Shown piece after piece: positions 16 through 64,000 of a DNA stretch of 64,000 nucleotides. The DNA is taken from assembly GCA_963744145.1 (NCBI GenBank), contig CAVUSO010000001.1, positions 5,216,001 through 5,280,000 of the forward strand, written 5' to 3'. How positions within the stretch are numbered: the first letter of the stretch is position 1; the number at the start of each line of letters is the position of its first letter. This DNA is from an uncultured cyanobacterium. GTDB taxonomy: Bacteria; Cyanobacteriota; Cyanobacteriia; Cyanobacteriales; CAWUOF01. The translations under genes and the position numbers were made by a program. Under the pieces are notes generated by a model. It saw only the letters and a program-made list of their open reading frames with translations, was not told the origin of the DNA and made no database searches.

Positions 16-619
16 ATGAAAGTACAGGTTTTATCTATTAAAGCGGCAAAAGAGCCTAACTCCCATGAAGTCTTGTTGTCTATCGGTGTAGATCAGCAAA
101 CTTTCATATTTACAACTGAAGTTAATCAAGTGGGAGAACATCAAATTCAAACGACTCATGGCGATCGCACTTTTTCAGAAGTATTCAGATTTAATCAGCG
201 AGTAGCAATGAATGTGAGTAATCTGGTAGTTAAATTTTCCAGCCAACAAATAATTGAATTGCCAGCCGACGTCGGTAATTTTGTCACTCCGGAAGAAACT
301 GTATCGAAGCTAAAATCTTATGAAAAGGGTAAGCCAATTCAGAGTGATCTGCAAGATAAACAAAAAGTTACGTTATATCTGTCGCCAAGAACTGCATCAC
401 CGACTCAAAATTCGAGCTGCGGTTGGCTCAGAACCAATATCTGTCATTGCTGAACGTGCGCTGATCTTTTATATGGAACATCCAGAAATAGTAGATGAAG
501 CCGGCAATACAGCGGATTCCACGTTGATGAAGTTATCTCGTTTGGTTGGGCGGGTTTATGATGGTGATCGATTTGGATCAGAATTGATTGGTGAACCCGC
601 CCCTACAAATCCTGGTTGA
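16..619 (+). pseudogene. Hypothetical protein with C-terminal ribbon-helix-helix-like domain, split by a +1 frameshift
   Basis: ORF 16-453 ends ...KQKVTLYLSP and ORF 320-619 continues ELHHRLKIRAAVGSEPISVIAERALIFYMEHPE. Removing one A at 387/388 (CCA-A-GAA) joins them into a cyanobacterial CopG/RHH-like motif. Confidence 0.6.
545..608. repeat. REP-like (GTAG-type) imperfect palindrome
   Basis: gggcgggtt...gaacccgcccctac; same family as the copies at 5085-5240. Confidence 0.55.
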
Positions 620-51592: not shown

Positions 51593-52313
51593 TTAGGTCG
51601 AACGTTTGGCTAATTTTCCATCTTCCATATAAACAATTCGATCAGCAATATCAAGAATCCGATTGTCGTGAGTAACTAGCAAAATTGTACAAGACTTTTC
51701 TTTAGCGAGATTTTGCATTAGATTAACTACATCACGACCTGATTTGCTATCTAATGCTGCGGTCGGTTCATCTGCAAGTACAATTTTGGGATTACTTACT
51801 AGGCCCAGCGATCGCTACCCGTTGTTTTTGTCCACCAGATAAATCGTCAGGATAATATTGCAATCGATGTCCTAATCCCACTAATTCTAGCATAGCCGCA
51901 GACCGTTCTTGCATTTCTTTGAGGGATAAATGGTGATGTAGTTCTAGACCCATTTTTACATTTTGCAAAGTTGTCAAACTTCCATGAAGGTTATGTGCTT
52001 GAAATATATATCCATGTTGACGACGCGCTTGGGTCAGTTGATTTGCACTTGCTCCACAAAGTTCTTGTCCTAATACTTGCAGACTACCGATTTGAGCTGA
52101 ACGTAATCCACCGATCAGAGTAAGTAAAGTGGTTTTACCAGATCCAGATGGTCCAGTCATGATCACAATTTCTCCTGCTTTGATCTCCAAATTGATATCA
52201 AAAAGAACTTGTTTACGCAGTTGTCCATGACCGAAATAGTGATGAAGATTTTGGGCTGAAATGACGACGGATTCTTGAACAGAAATTTCTGGGAGAGTAT
52301 TTGTTAGTTGCAT
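51593..52313 (-). pseudogene. devA: DevA-family ABC ATPase, frameshifted
   Basis: GPSGSGKTT and LSGGQKQRVAIA, then a frameshift near 51803-51806; another frame continues LVSNPKIVLADEPTAALD...VTHD to TAA at 51593. Confidence 0.8.
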
Positions 52314-52328
52314 AGTTTATACTTGATT

Positions 52329-53501
52329 TTAAAACATATCGGCTGGATCAGCAGATTGCAGTCTGCGAATAGCGATCGCTCCGGAAATAACACACATTAA
52401 AAAGGTCAATACTAACACTGTCAATGCTCGTGCTACTGTCATTGCGATCGGTAAAGCTGTGGCTTTTGCTGCTAATTGATAAAGCATCATCGGTAGAATT
52501 GAGCCAGGAATAAAACCCAAAGATGCGAGAATAATAGTTTCTTCAAATACTACCCCCATTAAGTAACTATTCCGATAGCCCATCGCTTTGAAAGTTGCAT
52601 ATTCTTTTAGATGAGCATTCACATCAGTAGAAAGAACTTGATAGACAATTACTATACCAACTACAAATGCCATCCCCGTACCTAAGCCAAAAATAAATCC
52701 GATTGGACTTTGTTTTTTCCAATAATCTTCTTCAAATTGAACAAATTCTTGATGGGTGAATACTTTCACATCATCGGGAAGATAAGATTTTAATCTTTTG
52801 GCAATTTCCTCGGCTTTATAGCCTGGTTCAATTTGAATTAAACCAAGACTAATGCTAACAGCTTCTCGGCGTGGAAATAAGACTAAAAAATTCTGATCGC
52901 TGGTGATTAAGTTGCCATCAGCGGCAAAAGAAGCTCCGAGTCTAAACAATCCAGAGATGGTAATTGTGCGCCTTTCTACTTCAGTATTAATCGATTTTCC
53001 TTGCTCAATTTGAGCAATAACTTTTTGATAATCTCCCCGAGAATTGCGATCAAATAAAACTGTATCAGGCAGTTTAATTAGATCTAATTTTTGATTGACT
53101 TCTGGCAAATTAAATGCAGCCTGACTTGGATCAAATCCCAACACCTGAATGTCTTTTTGCTGGTGCGTTTGGGGATTTTTCCAGGTAACTATTTGGGAGT
53201 GAAGAGCTGATGCTGATTGCACCCCCGGAATGTTCATTGCTTGATATAGTCGGCGTCGGGAAAAGGTAGATGTGAATTGCATATTCCGCCCCTGGGGACT
53301 GATTAATATTAAGTCAGCTCTTAAAGAACGACTAAGACGGGTATTACTATCATAAAGAGCATTTTGAAATCCTAGCTGCATAAACATTAGTACATCAGCA
53401 AAGGCAATTCCTGCTAAAGCTACTACTAACCGACCTTTTTCTCGACTTAGTTGCAGCCATCCGAGGGGTGTTCGTCGGAAAAATTGTTGGATAATTCCCA
53501 T
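52329..53501 (-). CDS. devC: DevC-family ABC permease
   Basis: PLGWLQL, GIAFADVLMFMQLGF, EYATFKAMGY, ADPADMF. Confidence 0.9.
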   Translation of the reverse strand: MGIIQQFFRRTPLGWLQLSREKGRLVVALAGIAFADVLMFMQLGFQNALYDSNTRLSRSLRADLILISPQGRNMQFTSTFSRRRLYQAMNIPGVQSASALHSQIVTWKNPQTHQQKDIQVLGFDPSQAAFNLPEVNQKLDLIKLPDTVLFDRNSRGDYQKVIAQIEQGKSINTEVERRTITISGLFRLGASFAADGNLITSDQNFLVLFPRREAVSISLGLIQIEPGYKAEEIAKRLKSYLPDDVKVFTHQEFVQFEEDYWKKQSPIGFIFGLGTGMAFVVGIVIVYQVLSTDVNAHLKEYATFKAMGYRNSYLMGVVFEETIILASLGFIPGSILPMMLYQLAAKATALPIAMTVARALTVLVLTFLMCVISGAIAIRRLQSADPADMF

Positions 53502-54700
53502 TATTGTTTGATCACTACTTTAACTTGTAGGTTAGTAAATTTGGCGGCTTTCTGACTAGATTCCTCATCTAATCCAACCCTAACTTCTACGATCCGCGAG
53601 TCAATATTGGTACTTGGATCGGTGTTGACGATCGCTTGTCGTCGGACCTGAGAACCTATTCTTTCTACTGTTCCCGCTAATTCCCCATTAATAGAATCGC
53701 TCTTTACAGATACGGACTGACCTAACTTAACTTTACTAACATCGCTTTGATAAACTTCGGCTAGTACATCCATTTGTCGCGTCTGTCCAATCTCTACAAT
53801 CCCATCATTAGATACAACTTCTCCTGCATGAGTATGTACATAAAGAATTTCACCATCTATGGGCGATCGCACATAAGCTTGTGCTAATTCGGCTTTAGCT
53901 TGATTCATCGCAGCGATCGCTCTTTTGATATCTATCCGATTTGCTTCTACATCTACAGCACGAACTTCAGCAATTTTTTCTAGGTTGGCTTTGGCTTGAT
54001 TTATTTCCGTTGGACTGGTAGACTGAAGCCGATTTAAAACTATTTGTGCCTCTTGTAAGCTTTTTTGAGTAGTTTCTAGGGTTAAGCGTTTACTATCCCG
54101 TTGAGATGCGGAAATAGCTCCTTCTTCATACAAGGATTGATAACGATTATACTCAGTCTGAGCATTCCGAAATTCCGAATCTAATCGGTCGATCGTAGCT
54201 TTCTGAGCATCGATTTCACCTTGTCTTTGTGTCTCTAAACGGGTAATCTCCGCTTTTTGATAGTCAATTTCACCTTTTTTTGCACCTGCTTGGGTAATCG
54301 CGAGTTTTGACTCAGCTACTTTTATATCTTCCTGTGCTTGTTCAAATGCTGCTTGCAAGCGATCGCGATTGTCTAAAATTGCTATTACCTCTCCTGCTTT
54401 AACCTGATCTCCCTCTTTCACGAGCAACTGATCCACTCGATTACCGTTAGTTGAGCTGGGTGCAGAAAGTTTAATGATCTCTCCGTGAGGTTCTAACTTT
54501 CCTAGTGCTGTTACGGTTTTGATTTCTGGAGGAGCCACGATTGTGGTTTCGCTAATGCTAGTCTGGGGTGTTTGTGATCTCGAGAGATTGTATGCTAAAA
54601 ATCCACTGACTGAAAGAATAGTGGCGATCGCTAGTCCTGTCCATGGGCGATCGCGCCATTTCGTCACAATCGACCCGTTCACTGTGGTATTTTGCACCAT
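53501..54700 (-). CDS. devB: DevB-family membrane fusion protein
   Basis: VTALGKLEP, coiled coil, AEVYQSD, DSRIVEVRV, TNLQV. Confidence 0.88.
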   Translation of the reverse strand: MVQNTTVNGSIVTKWRDRPWTGLAIATILSVSGFLAYNLSRSQTPQTSISETTIVAPPEIKTVTALGKLEPHGEIIKLSAPSSTNGNRVDQLLVKEGDQVKAGEVIAILDNRDRLQAAFEQAQEDIKVAESKLAITQAGAKKGEIDYQKAEITRLETQRQGEIDAQKATIDRLDSEFRNAQTEYNRYQSLYEEGAISASQRDSKRLTLETTQKSLQEAQIVLNRLQSTSPTEINQAKANLEKIAEVRAVDVEANRIDIKRAIAAMNQAKAELAQAYVRSPIDGEILYVHTHAGEVVSNDGIVEIGQTRQMDVLAEVYQSDVSKVKLGQSVSVKSDSINGELAGTVERIGSQVRRQAIVNTDPSTNIDSRIVEVRVGLDEESSQKAAKFTNLQVKVVIKQ

Positions 54701-54739
54701 TGGGAACATCCTGCTTATAATTGAAGTGTTTTCTGTTAA

Positions 54740-57800: not shown

Positions 57801-58217
57801 ATGCCAGCTAAAGATTTATTTCACAATACAGTAAAAATAGCCCTTGAAAAAGATGGGTGGACGATCGTTAACGAGAATCTATTCATTAAAATTGATAAGA
57901 TTGAATTTTATATAGACTTAGTAGCAGATAGAATTTTAACAGCAGAGAAAGCTGATAAAAAGATAGCTGTAGAGGTAAAATCTTTTATAGGAGTATCTCT
58001 AGTAAGTGAGTTTCATACAGCGCTAGGTCAGTTCCTCAATTATCGCTCTGCTTTAAGAAAGCAACAACCAGAGCGGGTTTTATACTTGGCAGTGCCTTTT
58101 GATATTTATGATGATTTTTTTGCCAGTAGTTTTATTCAGGAAGTTATCGCAGAACATCAACTAAAACTGCTAATTTTTGAGCCAAACATAGAGGAGGTTG
58201 TTTTATGGATAAACTAA
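57801..58217 (+). CDS. xisH: XisH family protein
   Basis: MPAKDLFH..VK.AL.KDGW, IAVEVKSF, FHTALGQFLNY. Confidence 0.9.
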   Translation: MPAKDLFHNTVKIALEKDGWTIVNENLFIKIDKIEFYIDLVADRILTAEKADKKIAVEVKSFIGVSLVSEFHTALGQFLNYRSALRKQQPERVLYLAVPFDIYDDFFASSFIQEVIAEHQLKLLIFEPNIEEVVLWIN

Positions 58218-58534
58218 ACTACAGCGAACTGGTGCAGAACATCATAAAAAATCATTTGGGGAATGGTTTAAATGCTAATACAGAAGTGCAATTAATATTT
58301 GATACGGAACGCGATCGCTATCAATTATTGCATATCGGTTGGCAAGATTTGCACCGAGTATTTGGTTGCATTATCTATATCGAAATCAAAAATAACAAAA
58401 TCTGGATCGAACGTGATGGCACTGAAATCGGAGTAGCTAATGAATTACTTGAAACTGGAGTACCTAAAGAAGATATAGTTTTAGCTTTTCACGCTCCTTA
58501 TAAACGGAAATATACCGAGTTTGCTGTTGGTTAG
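58205..58534 (+). CDS. xisI: XisI family protein
   Basis: FDTERDRY, KIWIERDGTE.GVA.EL, DIVLAFH. Confidence 0.9.
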   Translation: MDKLNYSELVQNIIKNHLGNGLNANTEVQLIFDTERDRYQLLHIGWQDLHRVFGCIIYIEIKNNKIWIERDGTEIGVANELLETGVPKEDIVLAFHAPYKRKYTEFAVG

Positions 58535-58790
58535 ATAAACATAATCTGCCAAATTCCTCTAGATATTTAGGATTATAGGAGAGGTCTTCAAGATCGCTAT
58601 CAAGACAGCCGATAAATTTTTGAGTCGCTGCGGCGAAGGATGTTTCGGCGGCTTCTAGTGCCACGGGTGTTTGCTGCTGAAGAGTACGGCTCGCTTGAAA
58701 TTCCAGAAATTCAATAAACTCAATGACTTTATTTTGTTGTTCGGGAGGAAGTTGGTGGATTTTTTGGATTGCTATTTCGAGAGTTAGCAT
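58464..58790 (-). CDS. DUF2281-like small protein
   Basis: LPPEQQNKVIEFIEFL and DLSYNPKYLEEFG; 3' end overlaps xisI, possibly after loss of a stop. Confidence 0.6.
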   Translation of the reverse strand: MLTLEIAIQKIHQLPPEQQNKVIEFIEFLEFQASRTLQQQTPVALEAAETSFAAATQKFIGCLDSDLEDLSYNPKYLEEFGRLCLSNQQQTRYISVYKEREKLKLYLL

Positions 58791-58798
58791 ATTGGGTG

Positions 58799-59422
58799 TT
58801 AGGTGATGGGTAGTGGGGAATGGGTAATGCTTTTGTTATACTCCCCATCCCCGAGTTCAAGGGTCAAACCGCGATAGACTTGCTCGATCGCCAAATTGAG
58901 ATTGATGCTTTTTAGTTCTATGATGTCGCCTGCTTGATAATTAATAATAATCCATTCGCCAGCATCGTTCTTGTGATACAAGTCTATTTCAATGGAAGTG
59001 GAGCTAACCAGTAAATAGTCCTTTAAGGCGGGATTATGGCGATATAGCCTAAACTTGCCGCCTCTGTCGTAAGCTTCTGTACTTTTGGATAAAACTTCAA
59101 CGATCAGACAGGGGTAGGTGAAGTAGTTGGGGGTGCTTTTGTCGCGATCGTCGCAGGTGACGCTGGCATCTGGGTAGGTATAGTTTTGAGTTCCAGCAAT
59201 GTTGATCTTGATATCAGAATTGCCGGGTATGCAGTTGCTGCCATCTAAATGAGCATCGAACAGGGCGGTAAACCGGATAGCAATGCGACCATGATTTACA
59301 CTGCCACCGCTCATAGCATAAACTTGGCCGTCGATATATTCATGCTTTTCGAGTTGCTGTTCTTCCCAAGTAAAATATTCTTCGGGGGTAAGAGGTGGGG
59401 CGTTATCTTTTGTGGTGATCAT
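58799..59422 (-). CDS. Uma2 family endonuclease-like protein (paralog of 22398-22976)
   Basis: LTPEEYFTWEEQQLEKHE identical to the first copy; YTYPDASV, VEVLSKST. Confidence 0.9.
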   Translation of the reverse strand: MITTKDNAPPLTPEEYFTWEEQQLEKHEYIDGQVYAMSGGSVNHGRIAIRFTALFDAHLDGSNCIPGNSDIKINIAGTQNYTYPDASVTCDDRDKSTPNYFTYPCLIVEVLSKSTEAYDRGGKFRLYRHNPALKDYLLVSSTSIEIDLYHKNDAGEWIIINYQAGDIIELKSINLNLAIEQVYRGLTLELGDGEYNKSITHSPLPIT

Positions 59423-59508
59423 TTTTGGAGTGATAGGTAATGGCATAATGTCAAAATCCTTTAAGGTACAAGATATTTGGGCTGTATTGGATTTGAAGAG
59501 GTCAAGAA

Positions 59509-60125: not shown

Positions 60126-60688
60126 ATCATGTTAACGCAAGATTTAAAACTTATCTTTTGTGGTGATCATTTTTGGGTAGGAATAAAGATGGGGCTGATT
60201 CGGTTGTATGGAGCTTTTTATGCTGAGTTGTCTTGTTATAAAATTGAAAGGGAGCTTAAGACGGTGATAGGGTGCGATGATCATGGATTAAGCTTGTTGT
60301 CAGAGTGCCCCCTATTGTGGGGCGAGGTTTAAAATTCCGGCATTGTGGGTGGATGGGTAGTTTCAGAGGTGTTTTATATTGTTTCCATAAATAGTAAATT
60401 GGCAAAATCCTAGGTCAAATCAACTTATCTCGCTAAATATAGCGCCATTGCTACCTGCGGAATTCATCCTTTCGTGTATTCGTAAGGCATCTGTAGAATA
60501 AAGAGGTCGTGAAAGGCTACATTGTTTCTCTAAAGTTATACGAGTGAGGTGCGATCGCTTTCTCCCTCTCAAACTCTAACACGGTCGCGATCGCCTCTTT
60601 TCTCTTGTATTCAAGCACATTTCCTCCAGTCCCCAATCGATATTTGAATGAGGTCAGCCTCTACCCTACTAGATTAACCTTAATTATA

Positions 60689-60762
60689 TGGACACAACTG
60701 GGCTCGAACCAGCGACCTCGTCGATGTCAACGACGCGCTCTAACCAACTGAGCTATGCGTCC
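60689..60762 (-). tRNA. tRNA-Val(GAC)
   Basis: GGACGCATAGCTCAGTTGGTTAGAGCG-CGTCG-TTGACAT-CGACG-AGGTCGCTGGTTCGAGCCCAGTTGTGTCCA cloverleaf. Confidence 0.97.
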
Positions 60763-60849
60763 AGTCTGGATAATCACTATAGCATGAGGTTTTTGCAAAA
60801 TGCAAGTGGTAAGAACAATTTTTTTTGAGGTGGGCAATGAGTAGTCTAG

Positions 60850-61137: not shown

Positions 61138-63432
61138 CTATAACCGACTGCTAAATGCCAAACAGTATATGGTAATTGTAATTAATACGATCCCCATATA
61201 CAGGAACCTAGCGCTAATACTGAGCAATCTGATCGCATTTTTATGTCCTTTACCTCGCAAACTTTCCACGATTAACCCAATTAGAAGACAGAACAAACAG
61301 AGACTAAAGAAGATATAGAAACCATATTCGATCGCAAATATATAGCCCGTGCTAGCAAGTTGAGAGTTGATTCCAGTTAAAAGTAATGCACTAGACAAGA
61401 GTGCAGATATAGCGACAGTTAGACGCTCTTTTACCATGTTCTCTGAAAAAAAGAGCGTACTAAATAATACTAATACCAAGAGACCCAATGGCAGTAATGT
61501 CTTGACTAAGAAAATGATAAACTGTCTTTGCAGTGTAATATTAGCAATTAAACCAGGATAATCGAGCTGAAGTTGTGCATTAAACAGTCGTGGATTGCCC
61601 CTAGTTGACTTGCTGCTAAAGGTTTGTTGAGCATATTGGATATTTTTGAAATTCCAGATTTCTAGAGATTTATAGGGATTTTTAATCTCCTCCGGATCAG
61701 GTTTAAACAATTTTAGTCCAAAGATATCGACAACATACATCAGGCGCTCACTGGGGATACGGATGTTTTGAAAGTAGAGTTTCAATGTTTGCTGATCAAA
61801 CGGGTAATCATGGAAATCATAGTTATTTCTAAATTCACCAGTAATATGATAAAGGCGATAGTTCAGTCCGTTAATAATATCAGTACGGATCGGTTTTTTT
61901 GGGTCGAATAAAGGCAGATTAGCATCCAGACTATTAGCAATACCCGTCGGAAAATTAATCGCGATCGCATCCTCATTACCACTGTAGCGCATCCATAAAT
62001 AAAAATCAGCAATAAAGCTGGATTTACTCTGATCAACGCGATTCAATTTGTTAATATCAATTCCCGTATATACTACTTCTTGTCTCCAGAAATATTGCTG
62101 ATTTGTTTGATGTGAATCAGTTAACTTAATCATATTTCCATTATTAATTTCTCGCTCCAAATTTACCAATTCAAAATGTTTTACAGGACTAAGCTGAGTT
62201 GAAGCTGAGATAATTGAGCGTCCGATAAACTGACCAAATCTAATTGCTGGATTATTATCATGATTGGCATTGAAATAAATATCACCGCTCAATCCTTTAA
62301 CAGCGACATCCGGAGAGTTAATGGCTTCAAGCTGATTACGAATTTGTTGGCGATCGCGTTTGATACTGGTAGGAGTATTTTGAATATTGGCGTTTTGAAT
62401 TGCTCGCACTGCCACCATAGCCGCATTGTAAAAGCATACTGCTACATAAGATGGAGACTTTCCATAAGCGTTCTGATAAGCACTGATAAACGATTGAGCT
62501 TCCACACCTGCACTATCTGCAATAATCGGTATCGCAAATCGAAGTCCGTTGATAAAATAACCTGGCTGCTGTTTTTCCTCATCATATTGGTCAAACAGAG
62601 CTGGAAATGTTTCTCTCCCGATGGTATCATTGCCAAGTAGTGTAACATTGAGATTACGTCGATGAATAGCAACAATGAATTCTTTGGCAAATTTATCACT
62701 AATGGCTAGAAAAACAATACCTGGTTCAGGATCTTTTGCTAAATCATTCACAATTTCATCAACAGATAATTGTAAATCCTCTGTTTCCGAGAACAACTCC
62801 CAAATATGTTTGATTTTCCCAGTTTGTTTAAAGGTTGCTGAAAATGCCATGCGAAGTGATCGCCCTGCGGCATCATCTGATGTAATTATGCTCGCAGTAT
62901 TGAATTTCAGTATTTGTTGAGCATATAGTGCTAAAAGAGTTCCCTGTTGCGTGTTAGTAAAAGTTGTGCGGAAATAGTAGGGATTAGCTTGGGTAAGGGT
63001 ATCAGCACTAGCTGTTCCAGTAATAACAGGAATTTCAAGTTTTTTATAAAGGGGAGCGGCTGCTATTGAAGTAGTGCTAGTCAGGTGCCCCAGGGTTACC
63101 AAGGCTGGACTTGTATCAATCTCCTTGACAACTTCCTGTGCAATCGTTGGATAGTCGCGATCATCATATATCAGCAACTTTAGGGGATAGCCATTGACAC
63201 CTCCTTGACGATTGATAGTATTGAAATAAAGTTGTACACCTTGAACCATTTCTTTTGCTGCTTCGCTACGGTTGCTGCCCAATGGAGCTACTAAAGCAAT
63301 CGGAATCGCATGAGCTTTTTTTAAATTTTGGCGGATCAGACCAGTAACTAACCCAAGTATAAGTAATGTTACTAAGGTAATTCCGACGTATTTTGTATAT
63401 TTATTGGTTCTCAACCGACTGAATTGCTGCAT
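61138..63432 (-). CDS. Periplasmic binding protein (LivJ/PBP1-like) fused to a pentameric ligand-gated ion channel subunit
   Basis: N-terminal TM; PBP (NRQGGVNG, GHLTS, YYFRT); beta-sandwich with DFYLW and Pro-loop YPFDQQ; pre-M1 R; four TM helices with LLP. Confidence 0.8.
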   Translation of the reverse strand: MQQFSRLRTNKYTKYVGITLVTLLILGLVTGLIRQNLKKAHAIPIALVAPLGSNRSEAAKEMVQGVQLYFNTINRQGGVNGYPLKLLIYDDRDYPTIAQEVVKEIDTSPALVTLGHLTSTTSIAAAPLYKKLEIPVITGTASADTLTQANPYYFRTTFTNTQQGTLLALYAQQILKFNTASIITSDDAAGRSLRMAFSATFKQTGKIKHIWELFSETEDLQLSVDEIVNDLAKDPEPGIVFLAISDKFAKEFIVAIHRRNLNVTLLGNDTIGRETFPALFDQYDEEKQQPGYFINGLRFAIPIIADSAGVEAQSFISAYQNAYGKSPSYVAVCFYNAAMVAVRAIQNANIQNTPTSIKRDRQQIRNQLEAINSPDVAVKGLSGDIYFNANHDNNPAIRFGQFIGRSIISASTQLSPVKHFELVNLEREINNGNMIKLTDSHQTNQQYFWRQEVVYTGIDINKLNRVDQSKSSFIADFYLWMRYSGNEDAIAINFPTGIANSLDANLPLFDPKKPIRTDIINGLNYRLYHITGEFRNNYDFHDYPFDQQTLKLYFQNIRIPSERLMYVVDIFGLKLFKPDPEEIKNPYKSLEIWNFKNIQYAQQTFSSKSTRGNPRLFNAQLQLDYPGLIANITLQRQFIIFLVKTLLPLGLLVLVLFSTLFFSENMVKERLTVAISALLSSALLLTGINSQLASTGYIFAIEYGFYIFFSLCLFCLLIGLIVESLRGKGHKNAIRLLSISARFLYMGIVLITITIYCLAFSSRL

Positions 63433-63476
63433 AACTGCTAATATTGGATTTAATTAAAAGTACAAGATCAATGATT

Positions 63477-64000
63477 TCAACTAATACGGTCCTTAAACAT
63501 AACCCAATAAACGATTACCGTCATTACCATCACTAGAATGTAAATAATTCGCGCTGCTTGATCAAGCCTTCTTGCCTGGAGATTATGTCCTTTCACGTTC
63601 AGGTTATCAGTGATAATAGAAATTGTTATACTGAACAAACTTAAGCAAAAGAAAATGTAGAAAACGTATTCTAATACTATGATATAGCCAACTTCCGATA
63701 GTTGATTGTTCATCCCAACTAGCAGTACCGTACCGGTAATTAAAGCTGCTACAGCAACGGGTGGACGATCTTTGCTGATTTTATGCGGAAAGTAAAGTGT
63801 TGTCATTGGTACAAGCATCAGCAAGAATAAAGGCAGCAGATTTTTGACTAAAAACACTAAGGAGCGTCGTTGCAAGGTGACAGTAGCACTTAAACCAGAG
63901 TAATCTACCCGATTTTTACTGCCAAATAGACGCGGATCGCCCTCATTAGATGTGATCCGAAAGGCTTCCTGAGCATAATCGAGCTGCTTAAATTTCCAAA
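63477..64000 (-). CDS. Second pLGIC-type subunit (5'-truncated by window edge)
   Basis: Frame open to the window edge; WKFKQLDYAQ...DPRLF...DYSGL...LQRR plus four TM helices align with the downstream paralog. Confidence 0.8.
   Translation of the reverse strand, partial: WKFKQLDYAQEAFRITSNEGDPRLFGSKNRVDYSGLSATVTLQRRSLVFLVKNLLPLFLLMLVPMTTLYFPHKISKDRPPVAVAALITGTVLLVGMNNQLSEVGYIIVLEYVFYIFFCLSLFSITISIITDNLNVKGHNLQARRLDQAARIIYILVMVMTVIVYWVMFKDRIS

Follow-up and report, generated by a model that had tools for sequence, protein, structure and literature searches.

Paired genes for flytrap-fused pentameric ligand-gated channels in cyanobacteria, a candidate bacterial heteropentamer

The prokaryotic pLGICs (ligand-gated ion channels of pentameric build) GLIC, ELIC, sTeLIC and DeCLIC are, to our knowledge, all homopentamers encoded by a single gene. 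Animal heteropentamers, such as the muscle nAChR, the GABA-A receptor and the alpha/beta glycine receptor, are built of core and accessory subunits whose pore linings and ligand sites are different. We know of mixed-subunit channels of this kind so far from animals, and no publication on a bacterial heteromeric pLGIC was found in the open-access literature. Closest to the genes described below are the pLGICs with a fused type-I periplasmic binding (PBP-I) domain. The available text of Tasneem et al. 2005 reports such a domain in front of a Cys-less pLGIC in Bradyrhizobium and Magnetospirillum (PMC549065), and the fusion itself is therefore not new. The same text argues that bacterial members are homopentameric, since most genomes contain one gene (PMC549065). 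Fusions of this type are also included in the supplementary alignment of Jaiteh et al. 2016, who discarded terminal domains (PMC4795631); the available part of their main text makes no mention of the terms heteropentamer, heteromer, tandem or periplasmic (PMC4795631).

The window analysed here, a stretch of 64,000 nucleotides from an uncultured cyanobacterium, ends in two genes of this kind in tandem (Table 1), of which the upstream gene is called A and the downstream gene B. A first-pass annotation of the DNA had described an ORF of 764 aa with a paralog only 44 bp upstream, an arrangement confirmed by the ORF coordinates (61138..63432 and from 63477), and the M2-like segments it quoted for both genes match the sequence. 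It had also advised retrieval of the upstream sequence, and genome DNA past the window end indeed completes A as a gene of 775 aa (window 63477..65804, corresponding to G000:C1:5279477-5281804 and L001 5477..7804). Its view that one gene of the two is fused to a periplasmic binding domain had to be abandoned, since a type-I binding domain is present N-terminally in both A and B and the two proteins align from end to end with 43% identity. Both proteins also possess the YPFD Pro-loop, with no Cys pair flanking it. A profile scan in all six frames identified A and B as the only two pLGIC-like genes in the genome. No terminator-like site could be found in the gap between them, and a scan for promoters and terminators yielded counts at chance level (19 versus 18.2 and 5 versus 4.7). 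The pair shows no sign of recent import, its GC content of 37–43% resembling that of the flanks.

Table 1. Features of the A and B genes at the end of the window (positions in the window)
Feature	Position	Strand	Remarks
Subunit B gene, 764 aa	61138..63432	(-)	N-terminal membrane helix, type-I periplasmic binding (LivJ-like) domain, pLGIC extracellular domain, four TM helices; M2 canonical (KERLTVAISALL)
B N-terminal hydrophobic helix, residues 11-40	63313..63402	(-)	Putative signal anchor or signal peptide
B Venus-flytrap domain, ~residues 42-410	62203..63309	(-)	L117/S119/S142 aligned to LivJ L77/S79/T102
B pLGIC beta-sandwich, residues 446-636	61525..62097	(-)	Pro-loop YPFD at 61795..61806; pre-M1 Arg636
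B M1-M4, residues 637-761	61150..61524	(-)	M2 ~61360..61428: Glu -1', Thr 2', Ser 6', Leu 9'
A-B intergenic gap, 44 bp	63433..63476	(-)	
Subunit A gene, 3' part	63477..64000	(-)	Architecture as in B
A M2, residues 679-701	63702..63770	(-)	Asp -1', Pro 1', Pro 2', Ile 9', Val 16' (A-clade signature)

The LivJ-type binding domain recognized in the first pass was recovered in B by Pfam as Peripla_BP_6 (residues 43–401, E 6e-33). An AF2 model of B (pLDDT 92) contains a helix at residues 11–40, the binding domain, a beta-sandwich at 446–636 and four helices at 638–759, and the flytrap of this model superposes on the LivJ-type structure 4gnr with Z 44.3 and an rmsd of 1.9 Å over 345 aligned residues, and on an mGluR domain with Z 36.1. 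The channel is less readily detected. Pfam identified no channel domain in the full-length protein and only sub-threshold matches in the isolated domains, and fold searches with the full-length model listed matches to the flytrap only; the channel was therefore folded separately. Folded alone, the channel domain of A (pLDDT 81) matches GluCl (Z 21.7, rmsd 3.0, 288 residues aligned), GLIC (Z 20.0), sTeLIC (19.5), DeCLIC (19.5) and ELIC (18.4), while unrelated folds have Z values of at most 9, and the best 34 rows of this search are all of pLGIC or AChBP type. GLIC is matched over its whole length by a profile of 34 channel domains (E ~1e-23). As the first-pass annotation had supposed, the C-terminal half thus has the pLGIC fold. 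Jaiteh et al. 2016 name the Pro and Asp of the Pro-loop and the pre-M1 Arg as the family signature (PMC4795631). This signature, [F/Y]PxD with the pre-M1 arginine, is present here, and all 107 relatives in the alignment have P544, D546 and R636 unchanged, as well as W480 and R482 of the beta-sandwich. A and B are genuine members of the PBP-I-fused prokaryotic pLGIC group. Their channel part is related to the GABA and nicotine receptor channels of nerve cells.

The source name of relatives is 'ABC transporter substrate-binding protein', which, together with the failure of Pfam to detect the channel in the full-length protein, bears out the mislabelling anticipated from the window sequence. Taken at face value, the source names and the Pfam result would mean that A and B are membrane-tethered ABC substrate-binding proteins with a non-conducting channel part, and in G711, a genome from another order of the same class, a gene for a branched-chain ABC ATPase lies three genes away from the pair on the opposite strand. 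This explanation is hardly credible, however, in view of the complete pLGIC fold and the invariant Pro-loop and pre-M1 residues, and no ABC permease adjoins the pair in its own genome or among the neighbours scanned. Likewise, cognate permease and ATPase genes beside the pair were not found in the own genome, in G711 or among the neighbours scanned.

With GLIC, ELIC, sTeLIC and DeCLIC the A channel domain has in common the channel fold (Z 18.4–20.0), the Pro-loop and a short M3-M4 loop, at 15–20% sequence identity. The matched GLIC structure entries contain five identical chains. The extra domain of DeCLIC has been likened, in the available text, to calcium-binding lobes (PMC12664993) and not to a flytrap as found here. 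The PBP-I-fused pLGICs of Tasneem et al. are alike in their type-I binding domain and Cys-less channel, and Bradyrhizobium-named relatives are ~42% identical in the channel, but one gene per genome was expected for them, whereas here two genes from two old clades are kept paired. The flytrap shares its fold with LivJ/HAAT binding proteins and with the flytrap domains that mGluR, GABA-B and iGluR receptors contain, as seen from the Z values for 4gnr and the mGluR domain; unlike these, it is fused to a pentameric pore, has a pocket that is only partly LivJ-like, and has no permease adjoining it.

Close relatives of the two proteins are split by the start of M2, with K[DE]RPP characterizing A, KERA[SA] a sub-clade A', KERLT clade B and VPR[IT] clade C. 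In a tree of the channel domain (IQ-TREE, 61 sequences), UFBoot values were 88 for A with A' (24 sequences), 100 for B (20 sequences), 100 for A with B, and 100 for C (9 sampled); these groups exclude the partial sequences P0004, P0130, P0142 and P0145 as well as duplicates. Over 16 partner pairs, A channels share on average 63% identity with one another and B channels 69%, compared with 53% for an A and its partner. In 16 out of 16 pairs each subunit is on average nearer to its own type elsewhere than to its partner, from which it follows that the A/B duplication is old. Judged from tree and identities, A and B are old sister clades, and the duplication arose inside the cyanobacteria. A recent strain-specific duplication was rejected on the same two grounds. 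Other tandem pLGIC pairs of cyanobacteria are 92%, 85% and 65% identical within their genome, and a fourth pair 49%; the first three look like local duplications by their sequences. That plain duplication also yields tandem pLGIC genes in cyanobacteria was counted against a heteromer.

The order A then B could be read directly as DNA in six loci, i.e. the own genome (G000), L034 (titled Limnothrix), L035 (Phormidesmis), L036 (Nostoc), L054 (a metagenome) and G711. The gap between the genes is about 9–51 bp in five of these loci and 371 bp in L054, which has a three-gene cluster A'-A-B. A seventh case, G689, is split, one contig ending in A'-A and another having B preceded by the tail of an A-type gene. 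Flanks differ at every annotated pair, the widespread Uma2 being the sole neighbour family in common, and no conserved third gene was identified among the 48 neighbours scanned out of ~140 ORFs around the pairs. Of the 20 A proteins, 18 could be assigned a partner (B in 17 cases, C in one); the contigs of the other two are no longer than 4.9 kb. On the B side, an A was assigned to 17 of the 20 proteins and none to the remaining three. Five of the 17 A-B pairings are adjacent in DNA, and 12 were deduced from contigs of exactly equal size, which was counted against a heteromer. Distances among the A proteins co-vary with those among their B partners (Mantel r=0.86 for the channel and 0.64 for the flytrap), with p overstated as kin are not independent. 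Both genes are present in each of the six distinct genomes where A or B is full-length or nearly so, G698 has a short B-type fragment only, and an intact A alone was found in none of the genomes or contigs examined. The pair is rare, as it occurs in 1/351 genomes of family f6 and in 2/401 each of the order sample and the class sample (own genome included); at E<=1e-60 there were 0/144 matches in family f3 and 0/8 in the order of G038. A further case may be contained in the supplementary alignment of Jaiteh et al. 2016, where K9SQE0 (ending at residue 775) and K9SRI1 (ending at 760) from one Synechococcus strain (PMC4795631) are probably an A/B pair, their lengths matching those of P0012 (B) and P0132 (A).

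Of the positions that reach 80% conservation or more in A as well as in B, those that differ between the two number 13 of 60 in the transmembrane domain (TMD), 4 of 77 in the extracellular domain (ECD) and 9 of 91 in the flytrap (TMD versus ECD, Fisher p=0.007, overstated by kinship), and 9 of all 27 type-specific positions fall within residues 656–686. In these alignments the conserved differences are concentrated chiefly in M1/M2 and the pocket of the flytrap. The M2 register was set from GluCl and rho1 alignments, and positions are given in the prime numbering of M2. Positions 1', 2', 9' and 16' are Pro, Pro, Ile and Val in A versus Leu, Thr, Leu and Thr in B, and A has an additional proline in M1. 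Position 9' is Leu in 64/64 B, C and outgroup sequences and Ile in 23/24 sequences of A/A', while position -1' is acidic in 20/20 A and 20/20 B proteins and Pro in 23/23 of clade C. An acidic -1' residue is tied to cation selectivity in the available text of Tasneem et al. 2005 (PMC549065). In loop C, Glu is found in 17/20 A proteins and Arg or Lys in 20/20 B proteins. That Pro 2' rules out a homopentamer could be dismissed, since GABA rho1 also has it and each of its PDB entries contains five copies; this too was counted against a heteromer.

At the flytrap positions aligned to LivJ Leu77, Ser79 and Thr102, all B proteins (20/20) have Leu, Ser and Ser, and A proteins have Arg (14/20), Ser (17/20) and Asn (17/20). 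The own genome's A has Arg, Ala and Asn, and Ala at the Ser79 position was noted for this A only. B has Ala at the positions matching LivJ Tyr18 and Tyr150. Ser79 and Thr102 of LivJ are described, in the available part of the source, as polar pocket residues with a role derived from docking (PMC6983066). That the A flytrap is simply dead as a property of the clade was rejected, since Ser79 is present in 17/20 A proteins and solitary C channels use a flytrap of this type as well. The departures from LivJ, namely Ala and Asn for Ser79 and Thr102 in the own genome's A and the two Ala residues in B, count in favour of a different gating, in which pH or ions act at the canonical ECD, as in GLIC, sTeLIC and DeCLIC, on a channel that may be hetero- or homomeric, with the flytraps confined to modulating it or concentrating ligand. 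Such gating would agree with the invariant W480 and R482 of the beta-sandwich, with the extra N-terminal domain of DeCLIC having been called modulatory in the texts available (PMC12664993; PMC9897478), and with the suggestion in the available text of Tasneem et al. that the fused domain pre-concentrates ligand (PMC549065). Nevertheless, it appears decidedly improbable, given that pocket residues are conserved inside each flytrap type and that the flytrap superposes at ~2 Å on ligand-bound HAAT binding proteins.

In one order, 44 of 71 genomes have clade C but neither A nor B, 42 of them containing one match only, and the 29 distinct C loci checked from that order all have the C motif. Since the M2 of these solitary genes is equally unusual, an odd M2 needs no partner. 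Most solitary C genes have an A-type flytrap. A is paired with C at least once in full length (P0124/P0148, deduced from contigs of equal size). Moreover, flytrap types swap, as P0122 combines an A channel with a B-type flytrap and C2 channels carry either type. L083 has an internally deleted A of 176 aa before an intact C gene, a form present on at least 24 contigs, and in G689 both A' and A contain nonsense codons while B is intact, which may represent decay or an assembly error. Decay of A beside an intact partner fits a dispensable accessory A, and fits independent homopentamers equally. Decayed A beside an intact partner, A-C pairing, flytrap swaps and solitary C together exclude a strictly obligate A/B complex. 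The solitary C genes, the flytrap swaps between channel types (which suit independent receptors) and the twofold decay of A beside an intact partner (L083, G689) were likewise counted against a heteromer.

As the main alternative, A and B could be separate homopentamers encoded in one operon, with different ligands and co-regulated like clustered chemoreceptor paralogues. This is what the available text of Tasneem et al. would lead one to expect of bacterial members (PMC549065), and it is in keeping with the two pocket types, the movement of flytraps between channels including the mostly A-type flytraps of solitary C genes, and the three-gene A'-A-B cluster of L054. It leaves unaccounted for, however, that an intact A was never found alone in the genomes or contigs examined, that order and adjacency persist though all flanks change, and that the ECD is the part that diverged least between A and B. 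Assembly of pLGICs is mediated by the extracellular domain. Given this domain's low divergence, co-expressed subunits that are 53% identical would probably mix unless selected otherwise, and we regard two independent homopentamers as rather unlikely.

We propose that A and B form one cation channel, a heteropentamer in which B is the core and A an accessory subunit, and assign this reading a probability of about 0.5. Co-inheritance across distant cyanobacteria, clades and residue patterns give real comparative support to the heteromer, which the first-pass annotation had already inferred for a co-transcribed pair. The A and B chains would be co-transcribed and assemble as one Pro-loop cation channel in the cytoplasmic membrane. 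B, with its canonical M2 and LivJ-like Ser/Ser pocket, would form the core and may also assemble by itself. A, with Pro at 1' and 2', Ile at 9', the extra M1 proline and usually an Arg/Asn pocket, would have an accessory role, altering the pore's shape and contributing a second sensor. The flytraps are predicted to close on a small solute in the periplasm, probably an amino acid or a related carboxylate, and closure would be transmitted via the linker at residues 411–445 to the beta-sandwich, opening the pore. Because of the acidic -1' residue in both subunits, cation flow is predicted, which would depolarise the membrane. The output can be guessed at, e.g. motility, as Tasneem et al. proposed for the family.

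A complex model of one A and two B channel domains scored 0.44 versus 0.00 for the best control, with at least 86% of contacts common to the runs and a partner pLDDT of at least 72. The mark applied is passed by 116/157 solved complexes and 2/215 mismatches, and at scores of 0.60 or below by 18/157 and both mismatches. The model thus lends weak support; its pass may reflect likeness to solved pLGICs, and it does not separate hetero- from homo-assembly. By analogy, animal heteropentamers would be alike in the core and accessory scheme, but A and B lack their Cys-loop cysteines and large intracellular loop and carry a fused flytrap. As the A/B duplication took place inside the cyanobacteria, any A/B heteromer would be convergent with those of animals.

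A conserved gene pair from two clades such as A/B was not found described before, and we consider it a strong and directly testable candidate for a bacterial heteropentamer, at roughly even odds. A broader picture can be offered somewhat more tentatively, in which a bacterial heteropentamer of core and accessory subunits, each with its own flytrap, arose independently of the animal heteromers, and in which cyanobacteria may combine the channel types A, B and C with two swappable flytraps, up to three genes in a row, as combinatorial receptors that convert chemical into electrical signals. The bacterial pLGICs used as models of nicotinic and GABA-A receptors are homopentamers, and many animal drug targets are heteromers. 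If the proposal is true, a bacterial heteromer encoded by two genes would give a model that is easy to express and suited to questions of subunit stoichiometry, accessory subunits and asymmetry in gating, and heteromerisation would have had more than one evolutionary origin. The flytraps fused to the channel make the physiological ligand of a bacterial pLGIC directly approachable and provide a new design for biosensors that turn ligand into current, in a family that is as a whole concealed by labels reading 'ABC transporter substrate-binding protein'.

Besides the paired genes, a flytrap-fused pLGIC is found as clade C (loci L132-L160 and L173-L179), which is recognized by an M2 segment starting with VPR[IT] and by the lack of the acidic -1' residue. 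Judged from sequence, the clade C channel is possibly anion-selective. Of the 48 genomes of genus g88, 40 carry it, in nearly all cases as a single gene, and this common type is a candidate homomer. Directly downstream of solitary C-type channel genes, a dCache_3 gene or a bacteriorhodopsin-like gene was observed (see the table).

Further cyanobacterial tandem pLGIC pairs are located at loci L168, L169, L170 and L171. The pairs of proteins of about 350 residues share 92%, 85% and 49% identity, and the one pair of proteins of about 1185 residues shares 65%. The pair with 49% identity (L170) could be another old pair.

Within the window, the ABC exporter operon is presumably DevBCA-like; its ATPase ORF, of just 173 residues, ends shortly past the signature motif and is possibly frameshifted. 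Two genes downstream of the tRNA are taken by us to be an XisH/XisI-like pair. A tRNA gene near channel genes was also seen at three other loci of the family (L035, L165 and L166).

Coordinates of channel genes in relatives and of other genes in the window
Feature	Location	Coordinates	Strand	Remark
176-aa A gene ahead of intact C gene	L083	2420-5891		
Premature stop (genome G689)	L033	2857-2859		
Premature stop (genome G689)	L041	about 61-63		
Three consecutive subunit genes, A'-A-B	L054	5968-13279		
dCache_3 gene; bacteriorhodopsin-like gene	L166; L055	8384-9166; 8712-9578		
ABC exporter operon	window	51792..54709	-	
Presumed XisH/XisI-like pair and Uma2 gene	window	57801..59446		downstream of tRNA-Val(GAC); Uma2 by Pfam
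tRNA-Val(GAC)	window	60688..60763	-	375 bp downstream of gene B

In the three-gene locus, the middle A channel belongs to a protein cluster whose representative, P0122, carries a B-type flytrap, which shows sensor swapping. In G689, premature stop codons lie close to the ends of the A' and the A-type gene, and B is intact. The short A gene of L083 is devoid of nearly the whole flytrap, and its extracellular domain is mostly missing as well. Further downstream lies another partial copy, of the C-terminal part. Since this short form was found on many contigs, it may represent a retained subunit consisting of the transmembrane part only, rather than debris.
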